Below are positions 19,800-63,790 of a DNA stretch of 64,000 nt, piece after piece (position 1 is the first letter of the stretch; each line of letters opens with the position of its first letter). The stretch is from NCBI GenBank assembly GCA_038087875.1, contig CM075989.1, positions 124,001 through 188,000 of the forward strand, in the 5' to 3' direction. The notes under the pieces were generated by a model that was not told the DNA's origin, did not search any database, and saw nothing but the letters and a program-made list of their open reading frames with translations. The position numbers and the translations under genes are program-made. This DNA comes from Malacoraja senta. Taxonomy: Eukaryota.

Positions 19800-19861
19800 T
19801 GACGCGCAGGCGCCCTGACAGGTCTTCTTCACATAGTCACTCACGTGACTTCGAAGTAAAA
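19800..19861. repeat. DIRS left (5') ITR
   Basis: Minus strand begins TTTTACTTCGAAGTCACGTGAGTGAC; matches both the ICR and the right ITR. Confidence 0.88.
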
Positions 19862-32700: not shown

Positions 32701-33910
32701 CATCTAACTGAGCCTCAAGCTCATCTACTTTACTTCTTATATTTTGCGCATTCATATACAATACTTTTAATTCCTTATGCATCTCACCTTTCACATCGAT
32801 CCCAATTACACTTGGCCATACTCTCCTATCCCTTTGTGAGCTTCCTTTCCCGTTAATTCTGGGGTCATTAATCATCCCTTTACTCTTTTTCCCTTTAACT
32901 CCGTCCTCGACTATCCCATTTGAAACCCCACCCCCCTTATTCAGTTTAAAACCACCCGTGTAGCAGTGGCAAACCTGCCTGCCAGAATGCTGGTCCCCCA
33001 CCTGTTAAGATGCAATCCATCCCTTTTGTACAGTTCCCCCTTACTCCCAAACAGATCCCAGTGACGTAAGAATCTAAATCCCTGCTCCCTGCACCAATTC
33101 CTCAGCCACACATTCATGTCCCGTATCTCCCTGTTCCTGCTCTCGCCAGCATGAGGAACTGGAAGCAAAGCGGAGATAACAACCCTGGTTGTCCTGCTTT
33201 TCAACATTTTTCCGAGCTCTCTAAAGTCACGCTGCAGAATATTCATCCCCTTCTTTCCGACATCGTTTGTGCCGACATGCACTACCACTTCCGGCTGTTC
33301 ACCTTCGCCCTTGAGGATTTTCTGCACTCTGTCCATGACATCCTGGATCCTGGCACCAGGAAGGCAGCACACCATCCTCGAATCACGTCTGTTGCTGCAG
33401 AAACCCCTGTCCGTACCTCTCACAATGGAGTCTCCAACTACAATGGCGTTGCCTGACGTTGGCCTCTTTGGTTTTGGCTCAACAGACCTGTTTGCTTCGC
33501 AAGCCAGTGCGCCGATCAGTGCGTTAATGTCTTCTGTCCTGGCAGTTTCCAAGTGGTTGAACCTCTTCACAAGAGGTATAACACCCGGGGATGTTTGCAT
33601 TCCATGTTTCCCTCCCTTTCTCACCGTCACCCACCTTCTCTCTTCCAGTACCTTAGGTGTAACAATCTTACTGTAGGACTTGTCGAGGAACGACTCAGTT
33701 TCTCGGACGAACCTGAGGTCATCCACTTGCTTCTCCAGTTCCCCAACACGGTCCTTCAGGAGCTGTACCTGGATGCACTTCTCACATTTGTAGTAGCCAG
33801 AGGCACCAGCAGTGTCCTTGACCTCCCACATACTGCAAGCATCACACTGAATCAGGTTGCCTGACATCTCCTTCTTTCATCTCTCCCTCTCCAGCGTTTT
33901 GCGTAGCACT
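29705..33910 (-). mobile_element. Near full-length CR1 (5' UTR, ORF1, ORF2 with EN and RT, 3' UTR); a second CR1 3' end is appended at 29705-29945
   Basis: Continuous ORF1-EN-RT-C-terminus across ORFs 32941-33867, 32314-33001, 31639-32253, 30605-31453 and 30151-30669. Confidence 0.93.
32941..33867 (-). CDS. CR1 ORF1p: zinc finger/coiled coil plus SGNH esterase (308 aa, uninterrupted)
   Basis: CxxC...CxxC, leucine heptads, GDS, PGA, VHVGTND, DGLHL. Confidence 0.9.
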   Translation of the reverse strand: MSGNLIQCDACSMWEVKDTAGASGYYKCEKCIQVQLLKDRVGELEKQVDDLRFVRETESFLDKSYSKIVTPKVLEERRWVTVRKGGKHGMQTSPGVIPLVKRFNHLETARTEDINALIGALACEANRSVEPKPKRPTSGNAIVVGDSIVRGTDRGFCSNRRDSRMVCCLPGARIQDVMDRVQKILKGEGEQPEVVVHVGTNDVGKKGMNILQRDFRELGKMLKSRTTRVVISALLPVPHAGESRNREIRDMNVWLRNWCREQGFRFLRHWDLFGSKGELYKRDGLHLNRWGTSILAGRFATATRVVLN

Positions 33911-34177
33911 CATTTATTCCCCCTCATTAATCCCCCTCATTTATTTATAAGCCTCATTTTGCTGAGTTCTTAGCTTCTTGTGCTCCAAGAATTGAAGTCT
34001 GAGCCTATCCAATCAACATAGCTGTGGCCCATGAATCTTTGGCACTTCATCGTGCATCTTCACCACACTCCTTGCAGCTTACTGCCATCCTTCCCAAAGT
34101 AGAGTGATCACAACGGAACTCAATAGTGGAAATGTGGCATCACCATGTCCTTCTACAACTATAAAATAACATCCCCA

Positions 34178-35757
34178 TCTATGTCCAAGACACCTTACAT
34201 GCTCTTAGTCTCCTTCATGACTTCCGTTTTCCAGGCCCCTACTCCCTCATCTTCACCCTGGATTTCCAGTCATTCTACACCTCCATCCCCCACCAGGAGT
34301 GTCTTAAAGCCTTCTGTTTCTTCCTCGACCGGAGAACCCTGTCTAGTAATACCCTCCTCCACCTAGCGGAGCTGGTCCTTACCCTCAACAACTTTTCTTT
34401 TGATTCCTCCCATGTCCTCCAAATCCATGGTGTAGCTATGGGCACGCGCATGGGCCCCAGCTATGCCTGCCTCATTTAAGGGTATGTAGAACAATCCTTG
34501 TTCGAGGCATACCTTGGCCCTACCCTCGAACTCTACCTCCGCCACATTGACGACTGCATTGGTGCGATCTCCTGCACCCATGCAGAACTCACTGACCATC
34601 TATTTCACCATTAACTTCCATCTGGCACACAAAATCATCTGGTCCATTTCCGACATCTCCTTCCCGTTTCTCGACCCCACTATCTCCATCGCAGGTAACA
34701 GACAACAGACCGGCATCTACTACAAACCCACTGACTGCCATAGCTATCATGACTGCATTTCTTCGCACCCTGCTTCCTGAAAGGACTCTATCCGCTGCTC
34801 CCAATTCCTCGGTCTACGCCGCACCAGGATGAGGTTTTCCAAAACAGGGCATCGGAGATGTCCTCATTATTTAGGAAACGGGGGTTCCCCTCCTATTATA
34901 GATGTCTCTCACCAGGGTGTCCTCAATATCCCGCAGTTTCGCCCTCACTACCCATCCCCCTACTCGTAACAAGGACAGAGACACCTTGCCCTCACCTTCC
35001 ACCCCATCAGCCATCGCATACAACATATAATCCTCCGACATTTTCGCCATCTCCAACGGGATCCTACCACTGGCCACATCTTTCCATCTCTTTCCCTTTG
35101 TGTTTTCTGCAGAGACCGTTCCTTCCGTAACGCCCTGGTCAATTCGTTCCTTCCCACCAAAACCGCAGGAGATGCAACACCTGTCCCTTTACCCCCCCCC
35201 CCTCGACTCCATTCAAGGACCCAATCACTATTTCCAGGTGAGGCATCTCCTCCAATCTCATCTAGTGCATCCGCTGTTCCAGGTGTCCATTTCTCTAGAC
35301 CAAGCGATCACTTCACCCAACACTTTTGCTCAGTTTGCACTAACCAACCCGATCTCCCGGTGGGTCAGCACTTCAACCCCCCCTCCCATTCCAAATCTGA
35401 CCTTTCTGGCCTGGGCCTCCTCCATTGTCAAATTGAGGCCCAGTGCAAATTGGAGGAACAGCACCTCATATTTCACTTGGGTGGTTTATACCCCAGCGGT
35501 ATGAACATTTACTTCTCTAATTTCAGATGTTCCTTCCTATCTCCTTCCTTCCCCTCCCGTTCTCAGCTCTCCCTCAAGCCTACTGTCTCCGCCTCTTCCT
35601 TTATTTTTCCCACCCCCCCCACATCAGTCTGAAGAAGGGTTTCGACCCGAAACGTCGCCTCTTTCTTCTCCCCATAGATGCTGCCTCACCCACTGAGTTC
35701 TCCCAACATTTTAGTCTACCATCTATTTATCCAGCATCTGAAGTTCTTTCTTTAACA
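34178..35757 (+). mobile_element. Penelope-like element, degenerate (RT, GIY-YIG remnant, 3' pLTR)
   Basis: GVAMGTRMGPSYA, HIDD, YYKPTD, S.HPAS, QHFN, GMN; terminal repeat with a hammerhead motif. Confidence 0.88.
35624..35662 (+). ncRNA. Minimal hammerhead ribozyme-like motif
   Basis: CTGAAGA-A-GGGT(TTCG)ACCC-GAAAC-GTC. Confidence 0.6.
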
Positions 35758-36415
35758 TCCCAACATCTGTAGTCAATATCCTGAGTGACAGCGGCCAAAG
35801 CCTTCGCTGTCACCAGATCTACTCGTTACGCCACTTCCGCGGGTCTATCATCAAATCACACTGCTCTCCAAATCACCCTCCGAAATCGGACAGAGAAGTT
35901 GAGAAAGGGATAATAGTGTGGCGGCAAGTAACCCAGTGGCCGTTTTTAACAGACGGACGCTCTCTCCATTTCAAGACTATCAGTGGCACCCATATGGAAG
36001 ATTTTGCAGATGATCCCTGGAGAGCTGAGCACAAAACCCGACTCTCAGTCATTTACGTCCAGCGCATGTGAGCGATGCCTATACTGCAGCCCATATCAGC
36101 AATCCTCGATTTTCTCCTTATAAACTATACTCTGAATTGGCTATTGCAAAATAATATTAAGGGAAAGCAAAGCAGTGAGCAGTTATTGTTTAATCAATTC
36201 AGCTTTTCACACTGTTTTTCTTGACAATCAGTTGATATCAGATCCAAACGAAACGTAGTTCCCTGGTGAAAGATTCGTTGCGCTTTACTTGGTGCAACAT
36301 TTCTCCTCACCGAAGCACGCTCCGCTTTCCTTAAAGCCATCGGGGCAGGGGTTCAGACATGTTCCCCTCTGAAGGCTGCACTTATCTGTACGACACAAAA
36401 TACAAGATGAATTAT

Positions 36416-38131
36416 CAGTTGCTAGACAAGGGAACTAACTTTGAAACTAATGAAGCTTAAATTTCAGGGCCATTAATCCCGGAGGGGATCCTGAAGCGAC
36501 TTTAGTCCACATTGCTTAAAAATGTTGGGTCTGCTGTATGAGGAGGTGTTTAAAATAATAATAATAATAATATATTGTAATTCAATACAAAATAATAGTT
36601 ACAATTAAAATTAAAAGGTTATTAAAGTATCATGTAGGCTCGCCGTAAACGATAAAACAACGTTCAAATTAAGGATGTTTCATTCTAAATAATTTAAAAC
36701 ATTATTAACATTTCTGACAGAAATTAAAATTTTATTTGAATTATTTATCTTAGGCTTGCCATAATCGAAAAAAATGAAAGCAAATTTCGATGCTTGCGGT
36801 CATTGTAAAGGCCAACACTTTGGAAACTTTATGTTTTCACGAATAATCTTATAAAACCTTAAAATATACTAAACATATAAAACCATTACAATAAATAATA
36901 ACAATTTGAATAATGTACGATTAAAATACAGTAAAAATAAAAAGGTAATAAAAATATCTTCTTTTGTAGATACAAACAGTAGATACCGCGTCGTAACAAC
37001 AAGGGGAGCAGTTGAAAATGCAATCGCAATCACAATGCAAACGTGAATCACGTGATTATCACGTCGTGATAGCACTCGTGATAGCGATCTGGAATAAATT
37101 TTTTTCAATAAAGTGTTCATAAGAATACAATATTTTAATTACCTCTTCTCAAAAATAAATGTTATATTTAGAAAAGTGAGGTAAGTGATAAAAGTGAAAT
37201 AGTGTTAGATTGGCCTAAACCTATTGTTTTTATGAAGAGGTGAACGGAAGGAAGGCAGCGACTGCAAAGCCTAGGCTAATACTGTATTACAAGTATTTAT
37301 GAAAAAGTTTTTTTTAAAAATCTCAGAAAGTAGACCTAAAAGTTGTTGACTATTATGGCATTTTGCAGGAGCTGTATTTTTTTTTTAATTTCTGGATCTC
37401 CAAGAAGATGGGGGGTTTTAAACACACAGCCTCAAACGCATTGTTACAAGGACATTTTCAGATGGAACAAGTGGTATTGCTTCTTTGAGATGAGCTGACA
37501 AATTTAGGATAGAAGTTCTATATCAACTCTATGACTGTTTGATAATCCTGTTACGCAAGAGTATTGACCCATGTGAGCAGATTGCGAAAAGGTTTAAGTT
37601 AGATGCGGACAGTATTAAACGTATAATATCGTATTACGAAGATGATATAGACTACAAATCAGTAAACGAGTGTTATCAGTTCAAAGAATATTTGCACCTT
37701 ACGATAATCCCAGAACACAGAAGAAAATACGCCATCTAAAATGCAATGTGCAGAAGTTGTTCAGCTTATTTATGAGCAACACCTAATTGACGTGTTCCCC
37801 AATATTACTACTACGCTTAAGCTGTACTTGACAATGCCTATCACGAGCTGTGAAGCAGAAAGGTATTTAAAAAATGTCCCTAATTTTCATCCCTCCATAA
37901 CTCGGAATTTGTTTATTCACAACAGTGACTTTGACATGTGAAATAATCCACTACATCAATTTTCATCAACATTTGAAATGTGTGGTTGAATTAAAAAAAA
38001 GTGTAGTGATCCGTCGTGGAACAACCCCATTGAAGAAGATAACAGTGGTTACCGAAACCCCGTTGCTATTTGCGAAGGGGCCCCCATAACAGTTCAAGCT
38101 TCAGGGCCCCAGAAATGTAGGTCCCCCACTG
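36416..38131 (+). mobile_element. hAT transposon remnant (internally deleted)
   Basis: hATC dimerisation motif FPNITTTLKLYLTMPITSCEAERY; CAGT.../...CACTG ends; TGAAGCTT...CAGGGCC subterminal motifs at both ends. Confidence 0.75.
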
Positions 38132-38189
38132 TAGCTGTAGGGAAAAACTAGGACAGATGAAATATTAAATGTGTTCGTCAAATATCTTT

Positions 38190-38363
<174 letters not shown>

Positions 38364-38364
38364 C

Positions 38365-39000
38365 GTTCACTCAAACAAAGAGTGAATGGGGAACTAACAG
38401 ATTGGTTCGCCACTGCAGTTGCAGTGCGACAAGAGTGTGTGATCTCACCACAGCTATTTAACATCCTGCGCGAACTGGTCATGTTGTATGCATTGCACGA
38501 CACACATATGTAGGCGTAAATATCCAAGGTCAGCTCCTAAATAACCTGCGCTTCGCAGATGACATCGCACTCATTGCTGCGAGTGAAACCGACCTCCAGA
38601 CTTTGGTAAACCTCGTACATGAAAGCGAAAAAGCGTTTGGACTGAAAATTAACTTAGCAAAAACACGTGCAGGCGATCTCCAAAGAGAACATAAAATAAA
38701 CATCTAAATCAGTGACACATCATTAGCCCAGTTGAGGCTTTCACATATCTAGGAGGAAAGATATGTCAAACTGGATCCTACACCCAAGACGTAAAATTAC
38801 GCATTGGGAAAGCTGTTGGGACTGTTCAAAACCTCCAAAAGATATGGAGCGCCAAAGACATCAGAAGCAGCACTAAGATCAATCTCTATAAAGTACTTGT
38901 GCTCTCAATACTGTTGTATGGAGCATAAATATGGACACTAAGAAAGGAAGTTGAAAACAGACTTTCAACATTTGAAGTGATGTCCCTTCACAAAATAAGA
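38365..39000 (+). mobile_element. RTE-clade LINE RT fragment
   Basis: [44 protein letters not shown]. Confidence 0.8.
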
Positions 39001-39083
39001 CCCCTTCCTAACCCTGTTGTTTGTTCACGGTTCCAAGCGAGAGGCTAAGTGGCAGTGATTGTAGAATGTTTGCACGTCCTAAA

Positions 39084-39606
39084 TATAGAAACATAGATAA
39101 TAGGTGCAGGAAGAGGCCATTCGGCCCTTTGAGCCATCACCGGCATTCGATAATATCATGACTGATCATCTAAAATCAGTACCCCGTTCCTGCTTTCTCC
39201 CCATATCCCTTGATTCCATTAGTGCTAAGAGCTAGATCTAACTCCCGCGTGAAAAACAAAACAGCGAATTGGCCTCCACTGCATTCGATGGCATGAATTC
39301 CTCATCTAAGTGCAAAATAGCCTACCCCTTATTCTTAAACTGTGTGACCCCTGTTCCTGGACTTCCCCAACATTGGGAACATCATTCCTGCATCTAGCCT
39401 GCCAAACCCTTAAGAATTGCAAATGTTTCTTTAAGATTACCTGTCACCCATCCAAGTTCCAGTGAATATAAGCCCAGTCGACCTAATCTTTCATCATATG
39501 ACAGTCTCGCCATCCCGAGACTCAACCTGGTGAACCTATACTGCACTCCCTCAATAGCAAGAATATCCTTCCTCAAATTAGGAGACCATAACTGGACACA
39601 TATCCA
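39084..39606 (-). mobile_element. CR1 3' fragment
   Basis: CR1 tail and ORF2 C-terminus. Confidence 0.85.
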
Positions 39607-39646
39607 AGGTCCGTATAGACGGCCTGCTGCATGAAGCAATGTAATG

Positions 39647-39921
39647 ATGCAAATTGATGCAAATATGTACATTAAAATAGAATTAGCTAATCGATCGTTT
39701 GGACATAAATGTGCCAATTCAAAACGGCAAAGCCTAGTCACAGATCTGGATGAAGGTCATGCATTAGGAACGCATCCGTTTACAATGCGTGTAAAATAAA
39801 TGAAAAGATCGTGCGGCGACCTCTGTGACATTGTGGATATAAATACGAAACCTCATCTTCTGAACAGAGCAACAGACAATAAGTGACTTCGGTATTCTGA
39901 AAAACGCAAGGAATCATGGGA
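39647..39921 (+). promoter_or_regulatory. Cluster of tandem octamers, TATA box and ZNF143/SPH-like motif
   Basis: ATGCAAAT at 39647 and 39657; TATAAATA at 39838; TCCCATGATTCCTTGC on the minus strand at 39906-39921. Function is not shown. Confidence 0.4.
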
Positions 39922-40502
39922 TTTGTCAAACCTCAAACGCTATGAATCAAATCGAACGAAGCGCTGTAGATTCAGTGAACATAGTTTGTGTCCATTTTTT
40001 TGGTCATTTTTCAAGTTTGGATTTGTCAGGGGGCAGAGTGATGGGGCAGATCAGAGCGGGAGAGCGGGGGGGGAGAGAGAGGCTGCACCGGTGGAGACAT
40101 TCTCGGCAGCTGCACGTACACAGACCCACGCCTCATCCGCAGCCAGGCTCGAGCCCGTGACCCTGGCGCGGCAAGCGCTGCCGAACCGCCACTGGACCGT
40201 CCCCTGTCCCACCCTCCCCGATCGAGTGTCACATCCCCGCCCGGGGGCACGTCCTGAGACATCCCGACCGACGGGACACTGACCCCAGGCCCACTGCCAG
40301 CACGCAGAATAAGTGCCAACCCCAGATCACCTCCGCCTCTCCCAACGGGCCAACTGACAGCCCCGGACCGACGACACCAGTGGCCCAGGCCCGCAACCAG
40401 CGCGGAGAAGAAGCGCCTACTCCAGCCCAACCCCGCTCCAAATCCAGAGGAATCCGCTCCGAGGTGGGACGCTACGGCGACAAGAGCCAGTTTAACCATG
40501 GC

Positions 40503-41599
40503 TGTCTGGACTACACTTCTTCCCACCCTGCTTCCTGTAAGGACTCCATTCCCCACTCCCAATTCCTCCGTCTACGCCGCATCTGCTCCCAGGTTGACGC
40601 GTTCCACACCAGGGCATCCGAAATGTCCTCATTCTTCAGGGAACGGGGGTTCCCCTCCTCCACCATAGATGAGGCTCGCACCAGGGTCTCTGCTATACCC
40701 CGCAACACTGCTCTCTCTCCCCATCCCCCCACTCGCAACAAGGGCAGTGTCCCCCTAGTCCTCACCTTTCACCCCACCAGCCGTCACATACAACAAGTGA
40801 TCCTCCGTCGGTTTTGCCACCTCCAACGTGACCCCACCACTCGCCACATCTTCCCATCTCCCCCTATGTCTGCCTTCCGCAAAGACCGCTCCCTCCGTAA
40901 CTCCCTTGTCAATTCTTCCCTTCCCTCCCGTACCATCCCCTCCCCGGGCACTTTCCCTTGCAACCGCAAGAGATACAACACTTGTCCCTTCACCTCCCCC
41001 CTCGACTCCATTCAAGGACCCAAGCAGTCGTTCCAGGTGCGACAGAGGTTCACCTGCATCTCCTCCAACCTCATCTATTGCATCCGCTGCTCTAGATGTC
41101 AGCTGATCTACATCGGTGAGACCAAGCTTGACGATCGTTTCGCCGAACACCTCCGTTCGGTCCGCAATAACCAACCTGACCGCCCGGTGACTCAGCACTT
41201 CAACTCCCCCTCCCATTCCGTATCCGACCTCTCTGTCCTGGATCTCCTCCATGACCAGAGCGAGCAACACCAGAAATTGGAGGAAATGCAACTCAAATGC
41301 ACGTCAGACTTGGGCAGTCTGCATGCCGGGGGCATGAACATTGAATTCTCCCAATTTTGCTAGCCCTTGCTGTCTCCTCCCCTTCCTCAGCCCACTGGTT
41401 GTCTCCTCCCACCCCTCAGCCCTCGGGCTCCTCCTCCGCCTTTTTCCTTTCTTCTCCCCACCCCCTATCAGTCTGAAGAAGGGTTTCGGCCCGAAACGTT
41501 GCCTACTTCCTTCGCTCCATAGATGCTGCTGCACCCGCTGAGTTTCTCCAGCATTTTTGTGTACCTTCGATTTTCCAGCATCTGCAGTTCCTTCTTTAA
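40503..41599 (+). mobile_element. Penelope-like element (RT C-terminus, GIY-YIG endonuclease, pLTR), 5'-truncated
   Basis: LDYTSSHP, IPHSQFLRLRRICS, NLIYCIRC..C.LIYIGET, RFAEH, QHFN; 15-bp TSD CAGTTTAACCATGGC at 40488-40502 and 41600-41614. Confidence 0.95.
41468..41506 (+). ncRNA. Minimal hammerhead ribozyme-like motif
   Basis: CTGAAGA-A-GGGT(TTCG)GCCC-GAAAC-GTT. Confidence 0.6.
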
Positions 41600-42392
41600 C
41601 AGTTTAACCATGGCCTGGCCGAGCTGCGCTCCCTCAGCCACCGCGTCAAGTACAAGACGGCGCCGTGGCGCACCTTGCACACAACCGGCTTCTGCCCCCA
41701 CGGTACCCGCTGCCACATCATCCACAACCCCGGGGAGGAGCGAGGGCCCAGGACTCGCCTGCGCCAGAGCCCCCACAAACCCGAGCCAGCCTGGGCTCGG
41801 CCTCCTCCGGTTCGACTGGGCCGCGCTGCGGGTGGCCTTCAGCCCTGACCTGGAGTTGGAGCTGGCCCGGGCTCTGAGCTCGGGGCTGGGCAGGGGAGGA
41901 GGAAGTTGCTGCTGCCGCCAGCACCACCTTCACCAACAGCAGCTGGAGCCCGGCCTGCCCATGGCCGGCAGGAGCCCATCTGTAGACTCTCTGTCCGACC
42001 AGGACGACTCCAGCAGCAGCGGCTCCGAGTCCCCCGACTTCGAGCAGGGTCGGCGGCTGCCCATCTTCAGCAGGTTCTCTGTGTCGGACTGAGGGAAGGG
42101 GGTGGAGGTGGAGAAGAGAAGTCAGTCAAGGTGTTGCTGTCCCGTCAGGTTGTGGTTGCGTGCCGTCTCCCATAGGGTGTCACCCTCCCCTCCGGGTTTG
42201 TGGGGGCTGGCGTACCCTGGTGTGGAAGACTGGAGGGGCAAGGGGCAATGGCATCTTTCCAATTGAGAGAATGTAAGTTCTCAACAGCCACTGGACAAGG
42301 CGAGAGGTCACCGGCCCGCCGGGAATGCCCCCCCTCCCCCCCCACACCGGGAGCCGGAGCAGAGCCAGCGCCTCCGCCCCGCGCCGACTGCA

Positions 42393-44650
42393 AGTAGTAT
42401 TGCGTAGGCTAATGGGACTGAAGGGTGATAAAACCCCTGGGCCTGATGGTCTGCATCACAGGGTCCTCGTGGAGGTGGCTCTAGATATAGAGGATGCATT
42501 GGGGATCATTTTCCAATGTTCACTTGATTCAGGATCAGTTCCTGTGGATTGGAGGATAGCTAATGTTATCTCACTTTTCAAGAAAGGATCGAGTAAGAAA
42601 ACGGGGAATTACAGACCAGTTAGCCTGACTTCGGTGGTGGGAAAGATGCAGGAGTCAATTATTAAAGAACTATTTATGGGACATTTGGATAGCAGTAAAA
42701 GGATTAATCCAATTCAGCATGGATTTATGAAAGGGAAATCATGCTTGACTAATCGTCTGGAATTTTTTGAGGATGTGACAAGTAAAACGGATGAAGGGTA
42801 TATAGTGTATCTAGACTTTCAGAAATCCTTTGATAAGGTCCCGCACGGGAGACTGGTGACTAAAATTAGAGCACATGGTATTGGGGGTAGGGTGTTTGGG
42901 GCCGCAACTGTTTACCATATATATTAATGATTTGGAAGAGGGAATTAGGAGCTACACTGGCAAGTTTGCGGATGACACAATGCTGGGTGGCAGTGTGAAC
43001 TGTGAAGTGGATATTAGGAGGTTGCAGGGTGACCTGGACAGGTTGAGTGAGTGGGCAGATGCGTGGCAGATGCAGTATAATATAGATAAATGTGAGGTTA
43101 TCCACTTTGGCGGCAAAAACAAGGGGGCAGATTATTATCTCAATGGGGTTAGGTTAGGTAAGGGGAACGAACAGCGAGACCTGGGTGTCCTTGTACACCA
43201 GTCCCTGAAAGTTGGCGTGCAGGTACAGCAGGCAGTGAAGAAAGCTAATGGAATGTTGGCCTTCATAACAAGAGGATTTCAGTATAGAAGTAAAGAAGTT
43301 CTTCTGCAGCTGTATAGGGCTCCGGTAAGACCACATCTGGAGTATTGTGTACAGTTTTGGTCTCCTAATTTGAGGAAGAACATCCTTGTGATTAAATGGC
43401 CTGTCCCACGGGTAGGCGACTCCATGCGGCAAGCGCAACCTAACCGGAAGCGGTGGCCGCGCAGAGGCCGAGTGATCACCGTACGGCCTGTCCCACGGGC
43501 ATGCGATTCCATGCGGCGAGCGCGACCTTACCGGAAGTGGGGGCTACGCGGACGTCCAGTTTGAGCGAAGTCCGTTGGAAGCTCGAGTGGTTTTTATGTA
43601 GGTGAACACGGGTAGGTGATGTTTAGGTTTTTATGTAGATGAACACGGATAGGTGGTGTTTCGAGTCGTGACCCTTCCTCAGACCATAGAAGACTGCAGA
43701 AGACTTCAGTCCGAAGAAGGTGTCTCGACCCGAAACACCACCTGTCCACAGAAGCTGCCTGATCTACTGAGTTACTCCAGCATGTTTGGTGTGTCCATCA
43801 TCGGTGTAAATGGGCATCTGCAGTTCCTTCCTTCACAACAATTCCAGAGTTGACGGAGACGGTGCACGCGGCGTCGAGGCGGTGCGCGCAGCCTCGATGC
43901 GGCAGGCGGTTGCCGCGCGAAATTTTTGAGCAGTGTCGGTTTTTCGGAGCCCCGCGTGGTGTCGAGACCAACTCCATACGGCTCCGGCGATCTACGTGGG
44001 ACCAGCCCCGCGACCTCCGCGCGGCCCCCGCACGGCCCCCGCTTCCGGTTAGGTCGCGCTTGCCGCATGGAGGGCCTGCCCTTGGGACAGGTCCTTAAGG
44101 CAGTGCAGCGTAGGTTCACGAGATTGAGCCCCGGGATGGCGGGACTGTCATATGAGAAAAGATTGAAAAGACTAGGCTTGTATTCACTGGAGTTTAGTAG
44201 GATGAGGGGATTATTATAGAAACATAAAATTATAAAAGGACTGGACAGCCTTAGAATAAAGGGGAGGCCATTTAAGACTGAGGTGAGAAAAAACTTTTTT
44301 ACCCAGAGAGTTTTGAATTTGTGGAATTTCCTGCCACAGAGGGCAGTGGAAGCCAAATCACAGGATAGATTTAAGAGAGAGTTAGATAGAGCTCTAGGGG
44401 CTAGTGGAAACAAGGGATATGGGGAGAATATAGTCATAGTCAATGCCTACTATGTACTGTTGTGCTGAAGCAAAGCAAGAATTTCATTGTCCTATTAGGG
44501 ACACATGACAATAAACTCACTTGAACTTGAACTTGAAGGCAGGCACGGGTTATTGATTGGGGCCGATCAGCCATGATCACAATGAATGGCGGTTCTGACT
44601 CGAAGGGCCGAATGGTCTCCTCCTGCACCTATTTTCTGTGTTTCTATGTT
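42393..44650 (+). mobile_element. CR1 RT to 3' end, interrupted by a MITE and a short Rex1 tail
   Basis: ORFs 42325-42927 and 42875-43395; the CR1 resumes at 44099 (AVQRRFTRL). Confidence 0.9.
43396..44095. mobile_element. PIF/Harbinger-type MITE with a nested Penelope-derived piece
   Basis: ~70-bp imperfect TIRs (A.G.CCTGTCCCA.GGG.AGGC...); TAA TSD at 43393-43395 and 44096-44098. Confidence 0.8.
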
Positions 44651-52836: not shown

Positions 52837-54945
52837 ATGTCGGCTGCGTTAATGTCTTCTGTCCTGGCTGTTTCCAAGTGGGTGAACCTCTTCACAAGAG
52901 GTATAACACCCGGGGATGTTTGCATTCCATGTTTCCCTCCCTTTCTCACCGTCACCCACCTTCTCTCTTCCAGTACCTTAGGTGTAACAATCTTACTGTA
53001 GGACTTGTCGAGGAACGACTCAGTTTCTCGGACGAACCTGAGGTCATCCACTTGCTTCTCCAGTTCCCCAACACGGTCCTTCAGGAGCTGTACCTGGATG
53101 CACTTCTCACATTTATAGTAGCCAGAGGCACCAGCAGTGTCCTTGACCTCCCACATACTGCAAGCATCACACTGAATCGGGTTGCCTGACATCTCCTTCT
53201 TTCATCTCTCCCTCTCCAGCGTTTTGCGTAGCACTCATTTATTCCCCCTCATTAATCCCCCTCATTTATTTATAATCCTCTTTTTGCTGAGTTCTTAGCT
53301 TCTTGCGCTCCAAGAATTGAAGTCTGAGCCTATCCAATCAACAAAGCTGTGGCCCATGAATCTTTGGCACTTCATCGTGCATCTTCACCACACTCCTTGC
53401 AGCTTACTGCCATCCTTCCCAAAGTAGAGTGATCACAACGGAACTCAACAGTGGAAATGTGGCATCACCATGTCCTTCTACAACCATAACATAACATCCC
53501 CATCTATGTCCAAGACACCTTACACGCTCTTAGTCTCCTTCATGACTTCCATTTTCCAGGCCCCTACTCCCTCATCTTCACCCTGGATTTCCAGTCACTC
53601 TACACCTCCATCCCCCACCAGGAAGGTCTTAAAGCCTTCTGTTTCTTCCTCGATCGGAGAACCCTGTCTAGTAATACCCTCCTCCGCCTAGCGGATCTGG
53701 TCCTTACCCTCAACAACTTTTCTTTTGACTCCTCCCATTTCCTCCAAATCCATGGCGTAGCTATGGGCACGCGCATGGGCCCCAGCTATGCCTGCCTCAT
53801 TTAAGGGTATGTAGAACAATCCTTGTTCGAGGCGTACCTTGGCCCTACCCTCAAACTCTACCTCCGCCTCATTGTCGACTGCATTGGTGCGATCTCCTGC
53901 ACCCATGCAGAACTCACTGACCATCTATTTCACCATTAACTTCCATCTGGCACACAAATTCATCTGGTCCATTTCCGACATCTCCTTCCCGTTTCTCGAC
54001 CCCACTATCTCCATCGCAGGTAACAGACTACAGACCGGCATCTACTACAAACCCACTGACTGCCATAGCTATCATGACTACATTTCTTCGCACCCTGCTT
54101 CCTGAAAGGACTTCCGCTGCTCCCAATTCCTCGGTCTACGCCGCACCAGGATGAGGTTTTCCAAAACAGGGCATCGGAGATGTCCTCATTCTTTAGGAAA
54201 CGGGGGTTCCCCTCCTATTATAGATGTGTCTCTCACCAGGGTGTCCTCAATATCCCGCAGTTTCGCCCTCACTACCCATCCCCCTACTCGTAACAAGGAC
54301 AGAGACACCTTGCCCTCACCTTCCACCCCATCAGCCGTCGCATACAACATATAATCCTCCGACATTTTCGCCATCTCCAATGGGATCCTACCACTGGCCA
54401 CATCTTTCCATCTCTTTCCCTTTGTGCTTTCCGCAGAGACCGTTCCTTCCATAACGCCCTGGTCAATTCGTTCCTTCCCACCAAAACCGCAGGAGATGCA
54501 ACACCTGTCCCTTTACCCCCCCCCCCTCGACTCCATCCAAGGACCCAATCACTATTTCCAGGTGAGGCATCTCCTCCAATCTCATCTAGTGCATCCGCTG
54601 TTCCAGGTGTCCATTTCTCTAGACCAAGCGATCACTTCGCCCAACACTTTTGCTCAGTTTGCACTAACCAACCCGATCTCCCGGTGGGTCAGCACTTCAA
54701 CCCCCCTCCCATTCCAAATCTGACCTTTCTGGCCTGGGCCTCCTCCATTGTCAAATTGAGGCCCAGTGCAAATTGGAGGAACAGCACGTCATATTTCGCT
54801 TGGGTGGTTTATACCCCAGCGGTATGAACATTTACTTCTCTAATTTCAGATGTTCCTTCCTTTCTCCTTCCTTCCCCTCCCGTTCCCAGCTCTCCCTCAA
54901 GCCTACTGTCTCCGCCTCTTCCTTTATTTTTCCCACCCCCCTACA

Positions 54946-54984
54946 TCAGTCTGAAGAAGGGTTTCGACCCGAAACGTCGCCTTT
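54946..54984 (+). ncRNA. Hammerhead ribozyme-like motif (duplicate of 35624)
   Basis: CTGAAGA...GAAAC-GTC. Confidence 0.6.
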
Positions 54985-57870
54985 CTTCTCCCCATAGATG
55001 CTGCCTCACCCGCTGAGTTCTCCCAACATTTTAGTCTACCATCTATTTATCCAGCATCTGAAGTTCTTTCTTTAACATCCCAACATCTGTAGTCAATATC
55101 CTGAGTGACAGCGGCCAAAGCCTTCGCTGTCACCAGATCTACTCGTTACGCCACTTCCGCGGATCTATCATCAAATCACACTGCTCTCCAAATCACCCTC
55201 CGAAATCGGACAGAGAAGTTGAGAAAGGGATAATAGTGTGGCGGAAAGTAACCCTGTGGCCGTTTTTAACAGAGGGACGCTCTCTCCATTTCATGACTAT
55301 CAATGTCACCCATATGGAAGATTTTGCAGATGATCCCTGGAGAGCTGAGCACAAAACCCGACTCTCAGTCATTTACGTCCAGCGCATGTGAGCGATGCCT
55401 ATACTGCAGCCCATATCAGCAATCCTCGATTTTCTCCTTATAAACTATACTCTGAATTGGCTATTGCAAAATAATATTAAGGGAAAGCAAAGCAGTGAGC
55501 AATTATTGTTTATCAATTCAGCTTTTCACACTGTTTTTCTTGACAATCAGTTGATATCAGACCCAAACGAAACGTAGTTCCCTGGTGAAAGATTCGTTGC
55601 GCTTTACTTGAATGCAACATTTCTCCTCACCGAAGCACACTCCGCTTTCCTTAAAGCCATCGGGGCAGGGGTTCAGACATGTTCACCCTCTGAAGGCTGC
55701 ACTTATCTATACGACACAAAATACAAGATGAATTATCAGTTGCTAGACAAGGGAACTAACTTTGAAAACTAATGAAGCTTAAATTTCAGGGCCATTAATC
55801 CGGAGGGGCCCCCTGAAGCGACTTTAGTCCACATTGCTTAAAAATGTTGGGTCTACTGTATGAGGAGGTGTTTAAAATAATAATAATAATAATAATATAG
55901 TGTAATTCAAATACAAAATAATAGTTACAATTAAATTTAAAAGGTTATTAAAGTATCATGTAGGCTTGCCGTAAACGATAAAACAATGTTCAAATTAAGG
56001 ATGTTTCATTCTAAATAATTTAAAAACATTATTAACATTTCTGACAGAAATTAAAACTTTTATTTGAATTATTTATCTTAGGCTTGCAGTAATCGAAAAA
56101 AATGAAAGCAAATTTCCGATGCTTGCGGTCATTGTAAAGGCCAACACGTTTGGAAACTTATGTTTTCACGAATAATCTTATAAAACCTTAAAATATACTA
56201 AACATATAAAACCATTACAATAAATAATAACAATTTTACTAATATACGATTAAAATACAGTAAAAATAAAAAGGTAATAAAAATATCTTCTTTGGTAGAT
56301 ACAAACAGTAGATACCGCCTCGTAACAACAAGGGGAGCAGTTGAAAATGCAATCGCAATCACAATGCAAACGTGAATCACGTGATTATCACGTCGTGATA
56401 GCACTCGTGATAGCGATCTGGAATAAATTTTTTTCAATAAAGTGTTCATAAGAATACAATATTTTAATTACCTCTTCTCAAAAATAAATGTTATATTTAG
56501 AAAAGTGAGGCAAGTGATAAAAGTGAAATAGTGTTAGATTGGCCTAAGCCTATTGTTTTTATGAAGAGGTGAACGGAAGGAAGGCAGCGACTGCAAAGCC
56601 TAGGCTAATACAAGAATTTATGAAAAAGTTTAAAAAAAAAATCTCAGAAAGTAGACCTAAAAGTTATTGACTATGGCATTTTGCAGGAGCTGTATTTTTT
56701 TTTAATTTCTGGATCTCCAAGAAGATGGGGGGGTTTTAAACACACAGCCTGGACTGCCTCATATAGTTTGCACACTATGAGGCAGTCCAGGCAATTAAAA
56801 ATGGACATATGGGTATTTTACAAACTCTCAAACATATTTTTGAAGACTCAGAAGAGAAGCCTGAATGTTAACGAGATGCAAAAAATTTACATCACAAGTT
56901 GGTAAAGCTGGAAGATGCTATATTGACAGTCGTTTGGGAAGTGGTGCTGGAGCGTTTCAACAAAACAAGAAACTCCAACCCCCGGTTTTGATGCATTTGA
57001 AGGTTATCTTCTGCTATCATCTTTACTTTCGTTTGTTAAAGAACTCAGAGAAAATTCAGCCAATGGGATAGCACACCATGAATCAGAAGCAAAAGGTTTG
57101 TGTGAAGATATCACCTCAAACGCATTGTTACAAAGGACATTTTCAGATGGAACAAGTGGTATTGCTTCTTTGAGATGAGCTGACAATTTAGGATAGAAGT
57201 TCTATATCAACTCTATGACTGTTTGATAATCCTGTTACGCAAGAGTATTGACCCATGTGAGCAGATTGCGGAAAGGTTTAAGTTAGATGCGGACAGTATT
57301 AAACGTATAATATCGTATTACGAAGATGATATGGACCACAAATTACTAAACGACTGTTATCAGTTCAAAGAATATTTGCACCTTACGAAATCCCAGAACA
57401 CAGAAAGAAATACGCCCATCTAAAATGCAATGTGCAGAAGTTGTTCAGCTTATTTATGAGCAACACCCTAATTGAAGTGTTCCCCAATATTACTACTACG
57501 CTTAAGCTGTACTTGACAATGCCTATCACAAGCTGTGAAGCAGAAAGGTATTTCAAAAATGTCCCTAATTTTCATCCCTCATAACTCGGAATTTTTTTAT
57601 TCACAACAGTGACTTTGACATGTGAAATAATCCACTACATCAATTTTCATCAGACATTTGAAATGTTGTGGTTGAATTAAATAAAAGTGTAGTGATCCAT
57701 CGTGGAACAACCCCATTGAAGAAGATAACAGTGGTTACCGAAACCCCCGTTGCTGTTTGCGAAGGGGCCCCCATAACAGTTCAAGCTTCAGGGCCCCAGA
57801 AATGTAGGTCCCCCACTGTAGCTGTAGGGAAAAAACTAGGACAGATGAAATATTAAATGTGTTCGTCAAA

Positions 57871-57942
<72 letters not shown>

Positions 57943-58035
57943 CGTCTATCTGTCGATCTGTCGATCTGTCGATCTGTCGATCTGTCGATCTGTCTATCTG
58001 TCGATCTGTCTAACGATTGATCGATCTATCTATCC

Positions 58036-58134
<99 letters not shown>

Positions 58135-60204
58135 CATCTATCTATCTCGTTCACTCAAACAAAGAGTGAATGGGGAACTAACAGATTGGTTCGCCACTGC
58201 AGTTGCAGTGCGACAAGAGTGTGTGATCTCACCACAGCTATTTAACATCCCTGCACGAACTGGTCATGTTGTATGCATTGCACGACACACATATGTAGGC
58301 GTAAATATCCAAGGTCAGCTCCTAAATAACCTGCGCTTCGCAGATGACATCGCACTCATTGCTGCGAGTGAAACCGACCTCCAGACTTTGGTAAACCTCG
58401 TACATGAAAGCGAAAAAGCTTTTGGACTGAAAATTAACTTAGCAAAAACACGTGCAGGCGATCTCCAAAGAGAACATAAAATAAATATCTAAATCAATGG
58501 CACATCATTAGCCCAGTTGAGGATTTCACATATCTAGGAGGAAAGATATGTCAAACTGGATCCTACACCGGAGACGTAAAATTACGCATTGGGAAAGCTG
58601 TTGGGACTGTTCAAAACCTCCAAAAGATATGGAGCGCCAAAGACATCAGAAGCAGCACTAAGATCAATCTCTGTAAAGTACTTGTGCTCTCAATACTGTT
58701 GTATGGAGCATAAATATGGACACTAAGAAAGGAAGTTGAAAACAGACTTTCAACATTTGAAGTGATTGTCCCTTCACAAAATAAGGGCCCCTTCCTAACC
58801 CTGTTGCTTGTTCATGGTTCCAAGCGAGAAGGCGAAGTGGCAGTGATTGTAGAATGTTTGCACGTCCTAAATATAGAAACATAGGTGCAGGAAGAGGCCA
58901 TTCGGCCCTTTGAGCCATCACCGGCATTCGATAATATCATGACTGATCATCTAAAATCAGTACCCCGTTCCTGCTTTCTCCCCATATCCCTTGATTCCAT
59001 TAGGGCTAAGAGCTAGATCTAACTCCCGCGTGAAAAACAAAACAGTGAATTGGCCTCCACTGCATTCGATGGCATGAATTCCTCATCTCAGTGCAAAATA
59101 GCCTACCCCTTATTCTTAAACTGTGTGACCCCTGTTTCTGGACTTCCCCAACATAGGGAACATCTTTCCTGCATCTAGCCTGTCCAAACCCTTAAGAATT
59201 GCAAATGTTTCTTTAAGATTCCCTGTCACCCATCCAAGTTCCAGTGAATATAAGCCCAGTCGACCTATTCTTTCATCATATGACAGTCTCGCCATCCCGA
59301 GACTCAACCTGGTGAACCTATACTGCACTCCCTCAATAGCAAGAATGTCCTTCCTCAAATTAGGAGACCATAACTGGACACATATCCAAGGTCCGTATAA
59401 ACGGCCTGCTGCATGAAGCAATGTAATGATGCAAATTGATGCAAATATGTACATTAAAATAGAATTAGCTAATCGATCGTTTGGACATAAATGTGCCAAT
59501 TCAAAACGGCAAAGCCTAGTCACAGATCTGGATGAAGGTCATGCATTAGGAATGCATCTGTTTACAATGCGTGTAAAATAAATGAAAAGATCGTGCGGCG
59601 ACCTCTGTGACATTGTTGATATAAATACAAAACCTCATCTTCTGAACAGAGCAACAGACAATAAGTGACTTCGGTATTCCGAAAAACGCAAGGAATCATG
59701 GGATTTGTCAAACCTCAAACGCTATGAATCAAATCGAACGAAGCGCTGTAGATTCAGTGAACATAGTTTGGGTCCATTTTTTTTGTCCTTTTTCAAGTTT
59801 GTATTTGTCAGGGGGCAGAGTGATGGGGCAGATCCGAGCGGGAGGGGGGGGGGAGAGGCTGCACTGCGGAGACATTCTCGGCAGCTGCACGTACACAGAG
59901 CCACGCCTCATCCGCAGCCAGGCTGGAGCCCGTGACCCTGGCGCCGCAAGCGCTGCCGAACCGCTACTGGACCGACCCCTGTCCCACCCACCCGATCGAG
60001 TGTCACATCCCCGCCCGGGGGCACGTCCTGAGACATCCTGACCGACGGGACACTGACCCCAGGCCCACTGCCAGCACGCAGAATAAGTGCCAACCCCAGA
60101 TCACCTCCGCCTCTCCCAACAGGCCAACCGACAGCCCCAGACCGAGGACACCAGTGGCCTAGGCCCGCAACCAGCGCGGAGAAGAAGCGCCTGCTCCAGC
60201 CCAA

Positions 60205-61853
60205 CCCCGCTCCAAATCCCGAGGAATCCGCTCCCCGATGGGACGCCACGGCGACAAGAGCCAGTTTAACCATGGCTGTCTGGACTACACTTCTTCCCAC
60301 CCTGCATCCTGTAAGGACCATCCCCCACTCCCAATTCCTCCGTCTACGCTGCATCTGCTCCCAGGATGACGCGTTCCACACCAGGGCATCCGAAATGTCC
60401 TCATTCTTCAGGGAACGGGGGTTCCCCTCCTCCACCATAGATGAGGCTCGCACCAGGGTCTCTGCTATACCCCACAACACTGCTCTCTCTCCCCATCCCC
60501 CCACTCGCAACAAGGTCAGTGTCCCCCTAGTCCTCACCTTTCACCCCACCAGCCGTCACATACAAGTGATCGTCCGTCAGTTTTGCCACTTCCAACGTGA
60601 CCCCACCACTCGCCACATCTTCCCATCTCCCCCTATGTCTGCCTTCCACAAAGACCGCTCCCTCCGTAACTCCCTTGTCAATTCTTCCCTTCCCTCCCGT
60701 ACCATCCCCTCCCCGGGCATTTTCCCTTGCAACCGCAAGAGCTGCAACACTTGTCCCTTCACCTCCCCCCTCGACTCCATTCAAGGACCCAAGCAGTCGT
60801 TCCAGGTGCGACAGAGGTTCACCTGCATCTCCTCCAACCTCATCTATTGCATCCGCTGCTCTAGATGTCAGCTGATCTACATCGGTGAGACCAAGCTTGG
60901 CGATCGTTTCGCCGAACACCTCTGTTCGCTCCGCAATAACCAACTTGACCTCCCGGTGGCTCAGCACTTCAACTCCCCCTCCCATTCCGTATCCGACCTC
61001 TCTGTCCTGGGTCTCCTCCATGACCAGAGCAGGCAACACCGGAAATTGGAGGAAATGCACCTCATATTCCGCTTGGGCATTCTGCATGCTGGGGGCATGA
61101 ACATTGAATTCTCCCAATTTTGCTAGCCCTTGCTGTCTCCTCCCCTTCCTCAGCCCACTGGTTGTCTCCTCCCACCCCTCAGCCCTCGGGCTCCTCCTCC
61201 GCCTTTTTCCTTTCTTCTCCCCACCCCCTATCAGTCTGAAGAAGGGTTTCGGCCCGAAACGTTGCCTACTTCCTTCGCTCCATAGATGCTGCTGCACACG
61301 CTGAGTTTCTCCAGCATTTTGTGTACCTTCGATTTTCCAGCATCTGCAGTTCCTTCTTTAACAGTTTAACCATGGCCTGGCCGAGCTGCGCTCCCTCAGC
61401 CACCGCGTCAAGTACAAGACGGCGCCGTGGCGCACCTTGCACACAACCGGCCTCTGCCCCTACGGTACCCGCTGCCACATCATCCACAACCCCGGGGAGG
61501 AGCGAGGGCCCAGGACTCGCCTGCGCCAGAGCCCCCACAAACCCGAGCCAGCCTGGGCTCGGCCTCCTCCGCTTCGACTGGGCCGCGCTGCGGGTGGCCT
61601 TCAGCCCTGACCTGGAGTTGGAGCTGGCCCGGGCTCTGAGCTCGGGGCTGGGCAGGGGAGGAGGAAGTTGTTGCTGCCGCCAGCACCACCTCACCAACAG
61701 CAGCGGGAGCCCGGCCTGCCCATGGCCGGCAGGAGCCTGTCTGTAGGCTCTCTGTCCGACCAGGACGACTCCAGCAGCAGCGGCTCCGAGTCCCCCGACT
61801 TCGAGCAGGGTCGGCGGCTGCCCATCTTCAGCAGGTTCTCTGTGTCGGACTGA
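60205..61853 (+). pseudogene. ZFP36: ZFP36/tristetraprolin-family pseudogene, copy B
   Basis: Same ZF and RRLPIFSRFSVSD motifs and same Penelope insertion (TSD 60262-60276 / 61362-61376); additional 1-bp frameshift near 61690. Confidence 0.9.
60277..61361 (+). mobile_element. Penelope-like element, copy B, with a hammerhead motif at 61236-61263
   Basis: ORF 60272-61126 with GIY-YIG motifs; 15-bp TSD. Confidence 0.93.
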
Positions 61854-62088
61854 GGGAAGGGGTGGAGGTGGAGAAGAGAAGTCAGTCAAGGTGTTGCTGT
61901 CCCGTCAGGTTGTGGTTGCGTGCCGTCTCCCATAGGGTGTCACCCTCCCCTCCGGGTTTGTGGGGGCTGGCGTACCCTGGTGTGAAAGACTGGAGGGGGC
62001 AAGGGGCAATGGCATCTTTCCAATTGAGAGAATGTAAGTTCTCAACAGCCACTGGACAAGGCGAGAGGTCACCGGCCCACCGGGAATG

Positions 62089-62218
62089 CCCCCCCCCACA
62101 CCCCCCACCCACACCCCACATCCCCCATCCCCCCCCCCCACACCCCCACACCCCCCACACCCCCACAACCCCCCCCCACACCCCCCCACCCACACCCCAC
62201 ACCCCCACACCCCCACAC
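62089..62218. repeat. C-rich (CCCCACA)n expansion
   Basis: Only ~20 bp at the paralogous site 42328-42347. Confidence 0.85.
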
Positions 62219-63790
62219 CGGGAGCCGGAGCAGAGCCAGCGCCTCCGCCCCGCGCAGACAGCAAGTAGTATTGCGTAGGCTAATGGGACTGAAGGATGAT
62301 AAATCCCCTGGGCCTGATGGTTTGCATCCCAGGGTCCTCGTGGAGGTGGCTCTAGAAATAGTGGACGCATTGGTGATCATTTACCAATGTTCACTTGATT
62401 CAGGATCAGTTCCTGTGGATTGGAGGATAGCTAATGTTATCCCACTTTTAAGAAAGGATCGAGTAAGAAAACGAGGAATTACAGACCAGTTAGCCTGACT
62501 TCGGTGGTGGTAAAGATGCTGGAGTCAATTATTAAAGAGATATTTATGGGACATTTGGATAGCAGTAAAAGGATTAATCCAATTCAGCATGGATTTATGA
62601 AAGGGAAATCATGCTTGACTAATCGTCTGGAATTTTTTGAGGATATGACAAGTAAAACGGATGAAGGGTATATAATGTATCCAGACGTTCAGAAAGCCTT
62701 TGATAAGGTCCCGCACGGGAGACTGGTGACTAAAATTAGAGCACCTGGTATTGGGGGTAGGGTGTTTGGGGCCGCAACTGTTTACCATATATATTAATGA
62801 TTTGGAAGAGGGAATTAGGAGCAACACTGGCAAGTTTGCGGATGACACAAAGCTGGGTGGCAGTGTGAACTGTGAAGTGGATATTAGGAGGTTGCAGGGT
62901 GACCTGGACAGGTTGAGTGAGTGGGCAGATGCGTGGCAGATGCAGTATAATATAGATAAATGTGAGGTTATCCACTTTGGCGGCAAAAACAAGGGGGCAG
63001 ATTATTATCTCAATGGGGTCAGGTTAGGTAAGGGGAAGGAACAGCGAGACCTGGGTGTCCTTGTACACCAGTCACTGAAAGTTGGCGTGCAGGTACAGCA
63101 GGCAGTGAAGAAAGCTAATGGAATGTTGGCCTTCATAACAAGAGGATTTCAGTATAGGAGTAAAGAGGTTCTTCTGCAGTTGTATAGGGCTCCGGTAAGA
63201 CCACATCTGGAGTATTGTGTACAGTTTTGGTCTCCTAATTTGAGGAAGAACATCCTTGTGATTAAATGGCCTGTCCCACGGGTAGGCGACTCCATGCGGC
63301 AAGCGCAACCTAACCGGAAGCGGTGGCCGCGCGGAGGCCGAGTGATCACCGTACGGCCTGTCCCACGGGCATGCGATTCCATGCGGCGAGCGCAACCTTA
63401 CCGGAAGCGGGGGCTGCGCGAACGTCCAGTTCGAGCGGTCCGTTGGAAGCTCGAGCGGTTTTTATGTAGGTGAACACGGGTAGGTGATGTTTAGGTTTTT
63501 ATGTAGGTGAACACAGGTAGGTGATGTTTCGAGTCGAGACCCTTCCTCAGACCATAGAAGACTGCAGAAGACTTCAGTCCGAAGAAGGTGTCTCGACCAG
63601 AAACACCACCTGTCCACAGAAGCTGCCTGATCTACTGAGTTACTCCAGCATGTTTGGTGTGTCCATCATCGGTGTAAATGGGCATCTGCAGTTCCTTCCT
63701 TCACAACAATTCCAGAGTTGACGGAGATGGTGCACGTGGCGTCGAGGCGGTGCGCGCAGCATTTTTGTGTACCTTCGATTTTCCAGCATC

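Follow-up and report, generated by a model that had tools for sequence, protein, structure and literature searches.

A decayed, Penelope-split fragment of a ZFP36-family gene in the skate Malacoraja senta, probably one of many partial copies

The locus considered here lies in a stretch of 64,000 nucleotides from the skate Malacoraja senta (contig CM075989.1, positions 124,001 to 188,000 of the forward strand; hereafter the window), in which an earlier note, made by a model from the letters alone, had described a duplicated pseudogene resembling tristetraprolin (TTP, ZFP36) and split by a Penelope element. The question that it raises is whether this is simply a dead gene copy, or whether a remnant that retains a CNOT1-binding end could still act on mRNA decay. 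The answer reached, at a probability of roughly 0.78, is that an elasmobranch ZFP36-family gene, in its skate version, left a 5'-truncated copy here that does not function, and that this copy is one of a set of multiplied partial copies. Of the components of this reading, the death of the locus itself is scarcely in doubt, and a multicopy family of ZFP36 fragments in skates is quite likely. No RNA-binding protein is made from the locus, nor, most likely, any peptide with a function.

Anatomy of the fragment

The identity of the fragment as a member of the ZFP36 family, as the earlier note had it, is established by its finger region, which matches the structures of ZFP36L2 (PDB 1rgo, E=8e-16) and TTP (PDB 1m9o, E=2e-12), together with a match to PF00642 that falls slightly under the cut-off (E=0.001). 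This tandem CCCH remnant has the (R/K)YKTEL lead-ins and the 18-residue linker of the ZFP36/TTP family and comes from a parent with both fingers. The features of the locus are the following, all on the plus strand unless stated otherwise.

33520..43892, first unit of a segmental duplication (blastn blocks 94-97% identical, gaps included)
52845..63760, second unit, with ZFP36 pieces at 60244-60276 and 61362-61853 and Penelope sequence at 60277-61361
40070..40469, no strand assigned, GC-rich repeated sequence joined to the ZFP36 fragment (high contig depth in four of four runs, except at 40240-40324)
40464..40466, codon just upstream of the junction in the finger frame, GTG in copy 1 and ATG in copy 2 (60238-60240)
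40470..40502, zinc finger 1, 3' half, without its third Cys (from tblastn and a residue-level comparison to skate orthologs)
40488..40502, left target-site duplication, 15 bp (right copy at 41600..41614)
40503..41599, 5'-truncated Penelope-like element, with a GIY-YIG match at about 41070-41171 and an open reading frame (ORF) ending at the stop 41363
41473..41497, pattern of a minimal hammerhead core, inside the terminal repeat of the Penelope (pattern match)
41600..41614, right target-site duplication, containing an out-of-frame ATG at 41610
41600..41770, rest of finger 1, linker, and finger 2 with Trp in place of its first Cys; 11 of 57 residues changed overall
41610..42092, incidental 160-codon ORF of copy 1, which reads finger sequence in the wrong frame and passes into the true C-terminus; interrupted in copy 2
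41771..41813, 14-nt insertion, eight retained parental codons and 7-nt deletion, with a net frameshift (comparison with parents)
41814..42092, C-terminal coding part, in frame in copy 1, 78% identical over 96 aa to a skate protein (P0001, introduced below)
42051..42092, CNOT1-binding motif with Ile changed to Phe (42075), and stop codon (comparison with orthologs)
42093..42394, remnant of the 3' untranslated region (UTR), with no ATTTA and no poly(A) signal, cut by a CR1 element from about 42392-42395

A functional ZFP36 protein is precluded by the absence of half of finger 1, the loss of two Cys ligands, the Penelope insertion and the net frameshift. The ligand losses, Cys to Ser and Cys to Trp, are found in both copies, as had been described. 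The lesion after LRQS, previously given as a deletion with a frameshift, does disrupt the frame, but its exact form is a 14-nt insertion at 41771-41784 followed by a 7-nt deletion near 41809-41813, between which the parental ASLGSASS is kept in a third frame. Other contigs (see below) have seven extra letters at 41809, and a gap-free contig from another organism crosses the lesion, which is thus older than the split from that organism. The RSPSVDSL stretch is not shared by both copies, being altered in copy 2 by two more changes and a 1-nt frameshift matching 41929. The roughly 300 nt of putative 3' UTR followed by a CR1 are as previously reported, and a 797-nt contig from another organism aligns over 42051-42238.

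At its 5' end the fragment begins later than the position 40432 first given, since the ZFP36 homology starts abruptly, in the middle of finger 1, at about 40470. The suspicion of a chimeric locus was correct in that a GC-rich repeat is joined to this point. The repeat includes a tandem pair of about 98 bp at 40250-40445, the second unit being 40348-40445 and the two units being 73% alike; the 38 nt before the homology start are partly sequence of this tandem pair and fall four codons short of the spacing in the parent. Attempts to name the repeat gave no identification with Pfam in 14 reading frames (a sole match at E=0.09 was ignored), no usable match in two Atlas searches (best 0.76), four chance-level matches with Rfam, and nothing from Tandem Repeats Finder or from blastn within the window.

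The insertion proposed earlier is confirmed by several features. Deleting 40503-41614 (1112 nt) rejoins finger 1 to the linker, and the insert is flanked by one 15-mer, which is the sole common word of at least 10 letters around both of its ends, and likewise in copy 2 (60262 and 61362); the chance of such a flanking match is about 2e-5 in the scanned area. It has matches to the GIY-YIG family PF01541 (E=0.003 and 0.007, under the gathering cut-off) and a hammerhead-core pattern, which would be expected of a Penelope. The insert is 5'-truncated and the reverse transcriptase core is absent. Penelope-family contigs align from 40496, with loose ends at 40496 and 41601 and a depth in the millions, so that 7 nt of the target also match the element, which amounts to a microhomology join. 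No Rfam hammerhead match was obtained at 41473-41497, where the free fold is also unremarkable (z=0.69). The core pattern occurs six times in the window (35629, 41473, 54951 and 61236 on the plus strand, 43658 and 63526 on the minus strand), partly at the ends of Penelope elements and partly within a short element close to 43650, and the patterns of the ZFP36 inserts have GTT instead of GTC after the core. Minimal hammerheads are described as typical of Penelope-like elements with a GIY-YIG endonuclease in PMC6155905; the insert resembles these in its GIY-YIG match, its core pattern and its 5' truncation, and shows no unusual feature within what is a very abundant skate family. A 400-codon ORF at 40161-41363, spanning the upstream sequence, finger 1 and the Penelope endonuclease, was considered and rejected: it has no early ATG, it contains a stop and frameshifts in copy 2, and its upstream part had a 20% chance of being open.

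The second copy seen by the earlier note is present because the whole block lies inside a segmental duplication of about 10 kb (33520-43892 and 52845-63760), 97-98% identical, which thus holds the fragment twice. Substitutions between the two units amount to 1.8-3.0% in three flank blocks, and the presence of the Penelope insert in both indicates that the insertion is older than the duplication. Other recent segmental duplications form a mosaic with this one: pieces 95-97% identical, at 1-946 and 51883-52839 and at 2329-2938, 39325-39934 and 59079-59716, adjoin or overlap it.

The parent gene in elasmobranchs

By sequence comparison, the fragment descends from a ZFP36-family gene found across the elasmobranchs, which encodes about 290-300 aa; its parent is the skate version of that gene. 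The C-terminal 101 residues of the fragment, used as a query, gave two close proteins, both from skates (73-75% identity), and in a search with one skate protein 13 elasmobranch clusters headed the list. Both window copies nest among three skate proteins (Shimodaira-Hasegawa-like approximate likelihood-ratio support 99) inside an elasmobranch clade (100) in a quick tree of 52 rows. The annotated skate proteins found were one per species in three species, namely XP_078287002.1 of Rhinoraja longicauda (P0001) and XP_032870229.1 and XP_055519735.1 of Amblyraja and Leucoraja (P0004 and P0005). They are 77-81% identical to the fragment over the linker, finger 2 and the C-terminus, including the lineage-specific DWAAL helix and the Cys cluster, and fall in the same clade. 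Compared with them, the fragment is without the N-terminal 118 or so residues, in place of which the repeat stands, has lost two zinc ligands, and carries the Penelope insertion, frameshifts and a substitution in the motif.

With TTP (ZFP36), ZFP36L1 and ZFP36L2 (1m9o, 1rgo) the fragment shares the tandem CCCH remnant as well as the motif at the C-terminus that binds NOT1, whereas the parent occupies a long elasmobranch branch of its own in the trees and is without the Tis11B_N domain of L1 and L2. This domain (PF04553) was found in none of five full-length elasmobranch proteins and in four of four L1/L2 proteins. As to the preference of the earlier note for TTP over L1/L2, the elasmobranch gene is not nested in L1/L2, which form a clade of their own (100/100), and has no Tis11B_N, but a grouping with TTP is not established. 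The gene tree that the note had called for in fact places the gene outside L1+L2, yet weakly beside them (78/62). Approximately unbiased tests, made on a careful tree of 26 rows that excluded the window copies, reject neither a grouping with TTP (p=0.093) nor one with a further paralog described below (p=0.094), and a grouping with both gives p=0.21. Chondrichthyan L1/L2 proteins were absent from the tree, which had just two teleost L2 sequences. The motifs held to be diagnostic of TTP are either common to that further paralog or mutations of the pseudogene, and no chondrichthyan-named protein was among the best 120 hits of a lizard TTP query. The elasmobranch gene may fairly be called TTP-like.

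The bony vertebrates searched have TTP, L1, L2, an L4-type gene and a further two-finger gene. The last is found in gar, bichir, sturgeon, eels, coelacanth, salamanders, turtles and lizards, where its annotation reads L1- or L2-like; it starts with MPS, has no Tis11B_N in the two proteins scanned, and forms its own clade (96/98). In eight species its records sit on contigs as long as those of TTP (record pairs P0032/P0189, P0058/P0220, P0044/P0180, P0067/P0218, P0052/P0243, P0038/P0138, P0086/P0131 and P0083/P0174, with a fused model, P0003), hence the term TTP-linked paralog. No mammalian member was among the matches obtained. The vertebrate ZFP36 genes are given as three plus Zfp36l3 and zfp36l4 in PMC3546996, the available part of which does not name the TTP-linked paralog; a literature search brought up no paper about it.

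Probable partial copies in skate genomes and the pattern of decay

The abundance of related sequences was assessed with contigs from four of 24 listed sequencing runs (two of organism A, one of B and one of C), each of 1.2-2.1 billion letters and read as genomic, which were aligned to 39900-42440 at 82% likeness; the letters and joints discussed come from 40 of 397 letter rows and 15 of 762 joints. In one run of the four (X1), the summed depth over 41685-42109, from finger 2 to the stop codon, is 8,900-39,600, whereas single long contigs have 30-50 and the UTR, although just as rich in GC, has 380-580; the other three runs show the same shape. Contigs with the parental letter at 42075 number 77, 38, 77 and 82 per run, and those with another letter at 42032 number 41-65. 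The long pieces are 10-16% diverged from copy 1, in X1 alone 42038-42070 is covered by four different contigs that are long and diverged, and three of nine long C-terminal pieces differ in length from copy 1 by other than a multiple of three. Taken together, skate genomes probably have many distinct partial copies, numbering tens or more, in which the C-terminus is represented most. Few of them have the 14-nt insertion, this subfamily comprising about four units in organism A, one in C and none in B, and joints from 41724 to 42051/42052 would represent paralogs matching at finger 2 and at the motif rather than deleted copies.

Depth at 40464, within 40442-40469, is about 200,000 in organism B, 17,000 in C and 1,400 in A, so that part of the upstream sequence seems to be a repeat whose amplification differed greatly from species to species. 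In their between-run depth ratios the upstream bins resemble the ZFP36 bins and not those of Penelope or CR1, which suggests that the repeat and the ZFP36 part travel together. At 40464 most aligned contigs have A, as does about 96-100% of the depth in organism A. The junction recurs in P0007, a 180-aa Logan protein from one contig of 1385 nt, which starts with Met at the same point in mid finger 1, has three changes right after it and then matches the skate parents, with finger 2 and the motif intact; like the full-length elasmobranch proteins it has no Tis11B_N. It may be a real one-finger copy or an assembly chimera of copy and parent. Among truncated skate clusters, none besides P0007 was listed in a search of 158-506 aa or in a 50%-identity library, and a scan of JGI metagenomes with P0007 gave one locus (L001), at 65% identity and over the finger only.

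The C-terminal motif, which had been taken as clean in both copies, is in fact altered: the orthologs end in RISVSD and both copies in RFSVSD. The changed position is Ile in 14 of 14 intact orthologs; among the 249 pattern-matching family proteins (of 269 examined) it is Leu in 179, Ile in 61, Met in nine and Phe in none, and about 98% of the aligned depth in each run has the other, parental, letter at 42075. The mutated Ile reportedly faces NOT1 (Fabian and colleagues, 2013). The motif forms an amphipathic helix on NOT1, according to PMC12350847.

The pattern of decay was evaluated by counting residue changes against the three skate parents. In copy 1 these number 12 of 63 in the fingers and nine of 90 in the C-terminus (Fisher p=0.15), and in copy 2, 13 of 63 and 11 of 90 (p=0.18); for the last 47 aa alone, p is 0.17 and 0.32, respectively. 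At the overall rate, one change at most in the 13-aa motif has p=0.45 and 0.37. No significant excess of conservation, as purifying selection on the retained motif would leave, emerges from these low-powered, protein-level tests. Ten of the 12 finger-region changes of copy 1 are at columns invariant in the 14 orthologs. Between the two copies the fragment differs at eight of 493 nt and the flank at 152 of 6973 nt (p=0.52), the absence of any change in the 42 nt of the motif and stop has p=0.39, and five of seven substitutions in alignable codons are missense when sorted by hand, where 71% would be expected under neutrality, in addition to a frameshift. These small counts are consistent with a neutral drift of both copies.

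A sequence of events can be proposed from these observations. The 3' part of the gene, from mid finger 1 onwards, is joined to the unrelated GC-rich repeat, presumably as the first step, and partial copies would then have multiplied in skate genomes to at least tens of members. The lineage of the present locus acquired the 14-nt insertion, the 7-nt deletion and many missense changes, after which a Penelope inserted into the end of finger 1, leaving the 15-bp duplication and the microhomology-joined 5' end; such elements insert by target-primed reverse transcription. The segmental duplication of about 10 kb copied the whole block, and both copies would since have drifted neutrally. The family is likeliest to have spread by DNA-level segmental duplication in repeat-rich regions, at about even odds with capture by a mobile element. 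Simple retroposition fits poorly, since no part is less represented than the 3' UTR.

Competing explanations and significance

Several observations weigh against a dead locus within a multiplied family of fragments. The crude copy bounds, obtained by dividing depth by that of single contigs and further by 31 for worst-case overlap, range across runs from 13-51 up to 400-1600 at 42075 and just from 2-4 up to 58-116 at 41643, a site in the linker, and depth in contigs does not measure copy number. The 15 joints include no Penelope-free one and none linking the upstream repeat to the fingers. The C-terminus is less changed than the fingers (10% against 19%), in tests of low power and on protein-level counts. 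The collapse of depth right after the stop codon would also be expected of a family selected for coding, six of the nine long pieces are in frame, and P0007 is an intact product from the same junction.

The alternative that survives best, although it is somewhat unlikely, differs from the preferred explanation solely in how the family spread. According to it, the ZFP36 fragment would be cargo of a mobile element that includes 40070-40469, through Helitron- or Pack-type capture or a template-switch chimera with a retroelement. The upstream sequence is indeed repeated and has an internal tandem pair, its abundance at 40442-40469 greatly exceeds that of the ZFP36 part in organisms B and C, and the majority of copies stop close to 42110. 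The upstream part, however, yielded neither terminal repeats nor a target duplication nor any similarity to coding sequence, and what the window directly displays is segmental duplication, including the mosaic of 95-97% identical pieces.

It is improbable that the locus is an isolated processed pseudogene, with a high depth that is an artefact of paralogs, low complexity and overlapping short contigs. The fragment has no intron and is 5'-truncated in a manner typical of retrocopies, and summed depth is not a copy number; the fingers of ZFP36-family genes are always in exon 2 (PMC3546996), which makes the missing intron uninformative. A retrocopy would be richest in the 3' UTR, the opposite of the observed profile, and no poly(A) signal lies within 300 nt, although the CR1 may have removed it. 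As to an artefact, 13-51 units remain at 42075 even with the worst-case overlap of 31-fold, most of the depth at that site has a letter that encodes Ile, like the elasmobranch gene, and not the Leu of L1/L2, the GC-rich UTR serves as a low-depth control, and X1 has four distinct long diverged contigs.

A further reading, for which the chances are poorer still, accepts that the locus is dead and makes it a member of a skate-specific, expanded family of chimeric one-finger genes, some of them intact and modulating the decay of mRNAs with AU-rich elements. Intact members such as P0007 would, improbably, be expressed, keep the CNOT1 motif, bind AU-rich elements poorly and dampen TTP-type decay, and the locus would then be a dead member marking a family with a new start codon in mid finger 1. 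In its favour are the in-frame ATG at the junction of copy 2, the predominance of A at 40464 in organism A, the start of P0007 at the junction with a match to the parents over the rest, and the drop of depth after the stop. Among 8000 scored candidates of 158-506 aa, though, the listed skate clusters are P0001 and the P0002 cluster only, and the 50%-identity library gave two matches, both full-length elasmobranch genes. Some pieces of the family are frameshifted, P0007 comes from a single contig that could be a chimera, and the depth at 40464 in B and C is far above that of ZFP36, which makes the signal partly the upstream repeat's own.

Non-binding TTP mutants reportedly have a dominant-negative effect (Lai and colleagues, 2002); the passages of PMC3439922 consulted did not show it. 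The decoy that the earlier note had speculated about, in which copy 1 would be transcribed (for example, from the Penelope terminal repeat) and read from the ATG at 41610 into a finger-less 160-aa peptide occupying CNOT1, is hardly credible at this locus, for although the 160-codon ORF has an ATG in good context and ends in the motif, and the TTP motif alone recruits decay when tethered (PMC9476947), the motif here has Phe where the amphipathic helix is invariant, decay is statistically even, the ORF is broken by a frameshift in copy 2, its first 60 or so codons are in the wrong frame, its ATG derives simply from a His codon of finger 1, and the binding of TTP to CCR4-NOT is multivalent and drops little when the motif is absent (PMC12350847), so that a lone motif would be a weak competitor.

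The duplicated block is set in transposon-dense vertebrate DNA, with pieces of CR1, RTE, L2-like, DIRS and Penelope elements (labels assigned from the ORFs); the closest proteins to the ORFs of the window are from skates, and an exact-sequence look-up of six of them in a protein collection found none. A CR1 ORF1 with a GDS esterase-like motif, at 32941-33876 and 52695-53201 on the minus strand, is cut by the left boundary of the duplication. Elsewhere there are a presumably DIRS-like element (15104-19828, minus strand), with an 847-codon frame for reverse transcriptase and RNase H and a recombinase-like frame, and frames at 8182-9160 taken to be of a PIF1-type helicase, as is typical of Helitrons. 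An AT-rich tandem array at 5878-6640 has about 22 copies of a 33-bp unit. A GC-rich insert in a CR1 at 43395-44100, whose inverted ends start with GGCCTGTCCCA, may be a Harbinger-type miniature inverted-repeat transposable element, which it resembles.

Lineage-specific extra copies of ZFP36-family genes have parallels in rodent Zfp36l3 and Xenopus zfp36l4, duplicates thought to be retroposed according to PMC3546996. These keep their fingers and reading frames, whereas the skate copy is truncated, broken and apparently one of many. Repeats of gene fragments also arise elsewhere by segmental duplication or by transposon capture, as with Pack-MULE and Helitron cargo and chimeric retrocopies; the skate case is alike in that a fragment of a host gene is joined to unrelated sequence and multiplied, and differs in that no carrier element was found. 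A literature search that covered few subscription papers brought up none dealing with a ZFP36 repeat in skates or with the elasmobranch gene, and supplements of skate genome papers, with their repeat libraries, could list the sequence as an unknown repeat.

The locus itself is an ordinary fossil, a tidy record of layered events. Its wider interest is that a normally single-copy, dosage-sensitive gene of mRNA decay seems to have given rise to partial copies, tens of them or more, in several skate genomes. The mapping of reads and the annotation of the real gene would be confused by them, and across the family it could be tested directly whether selection ever retains truncated products that bind NOT1.

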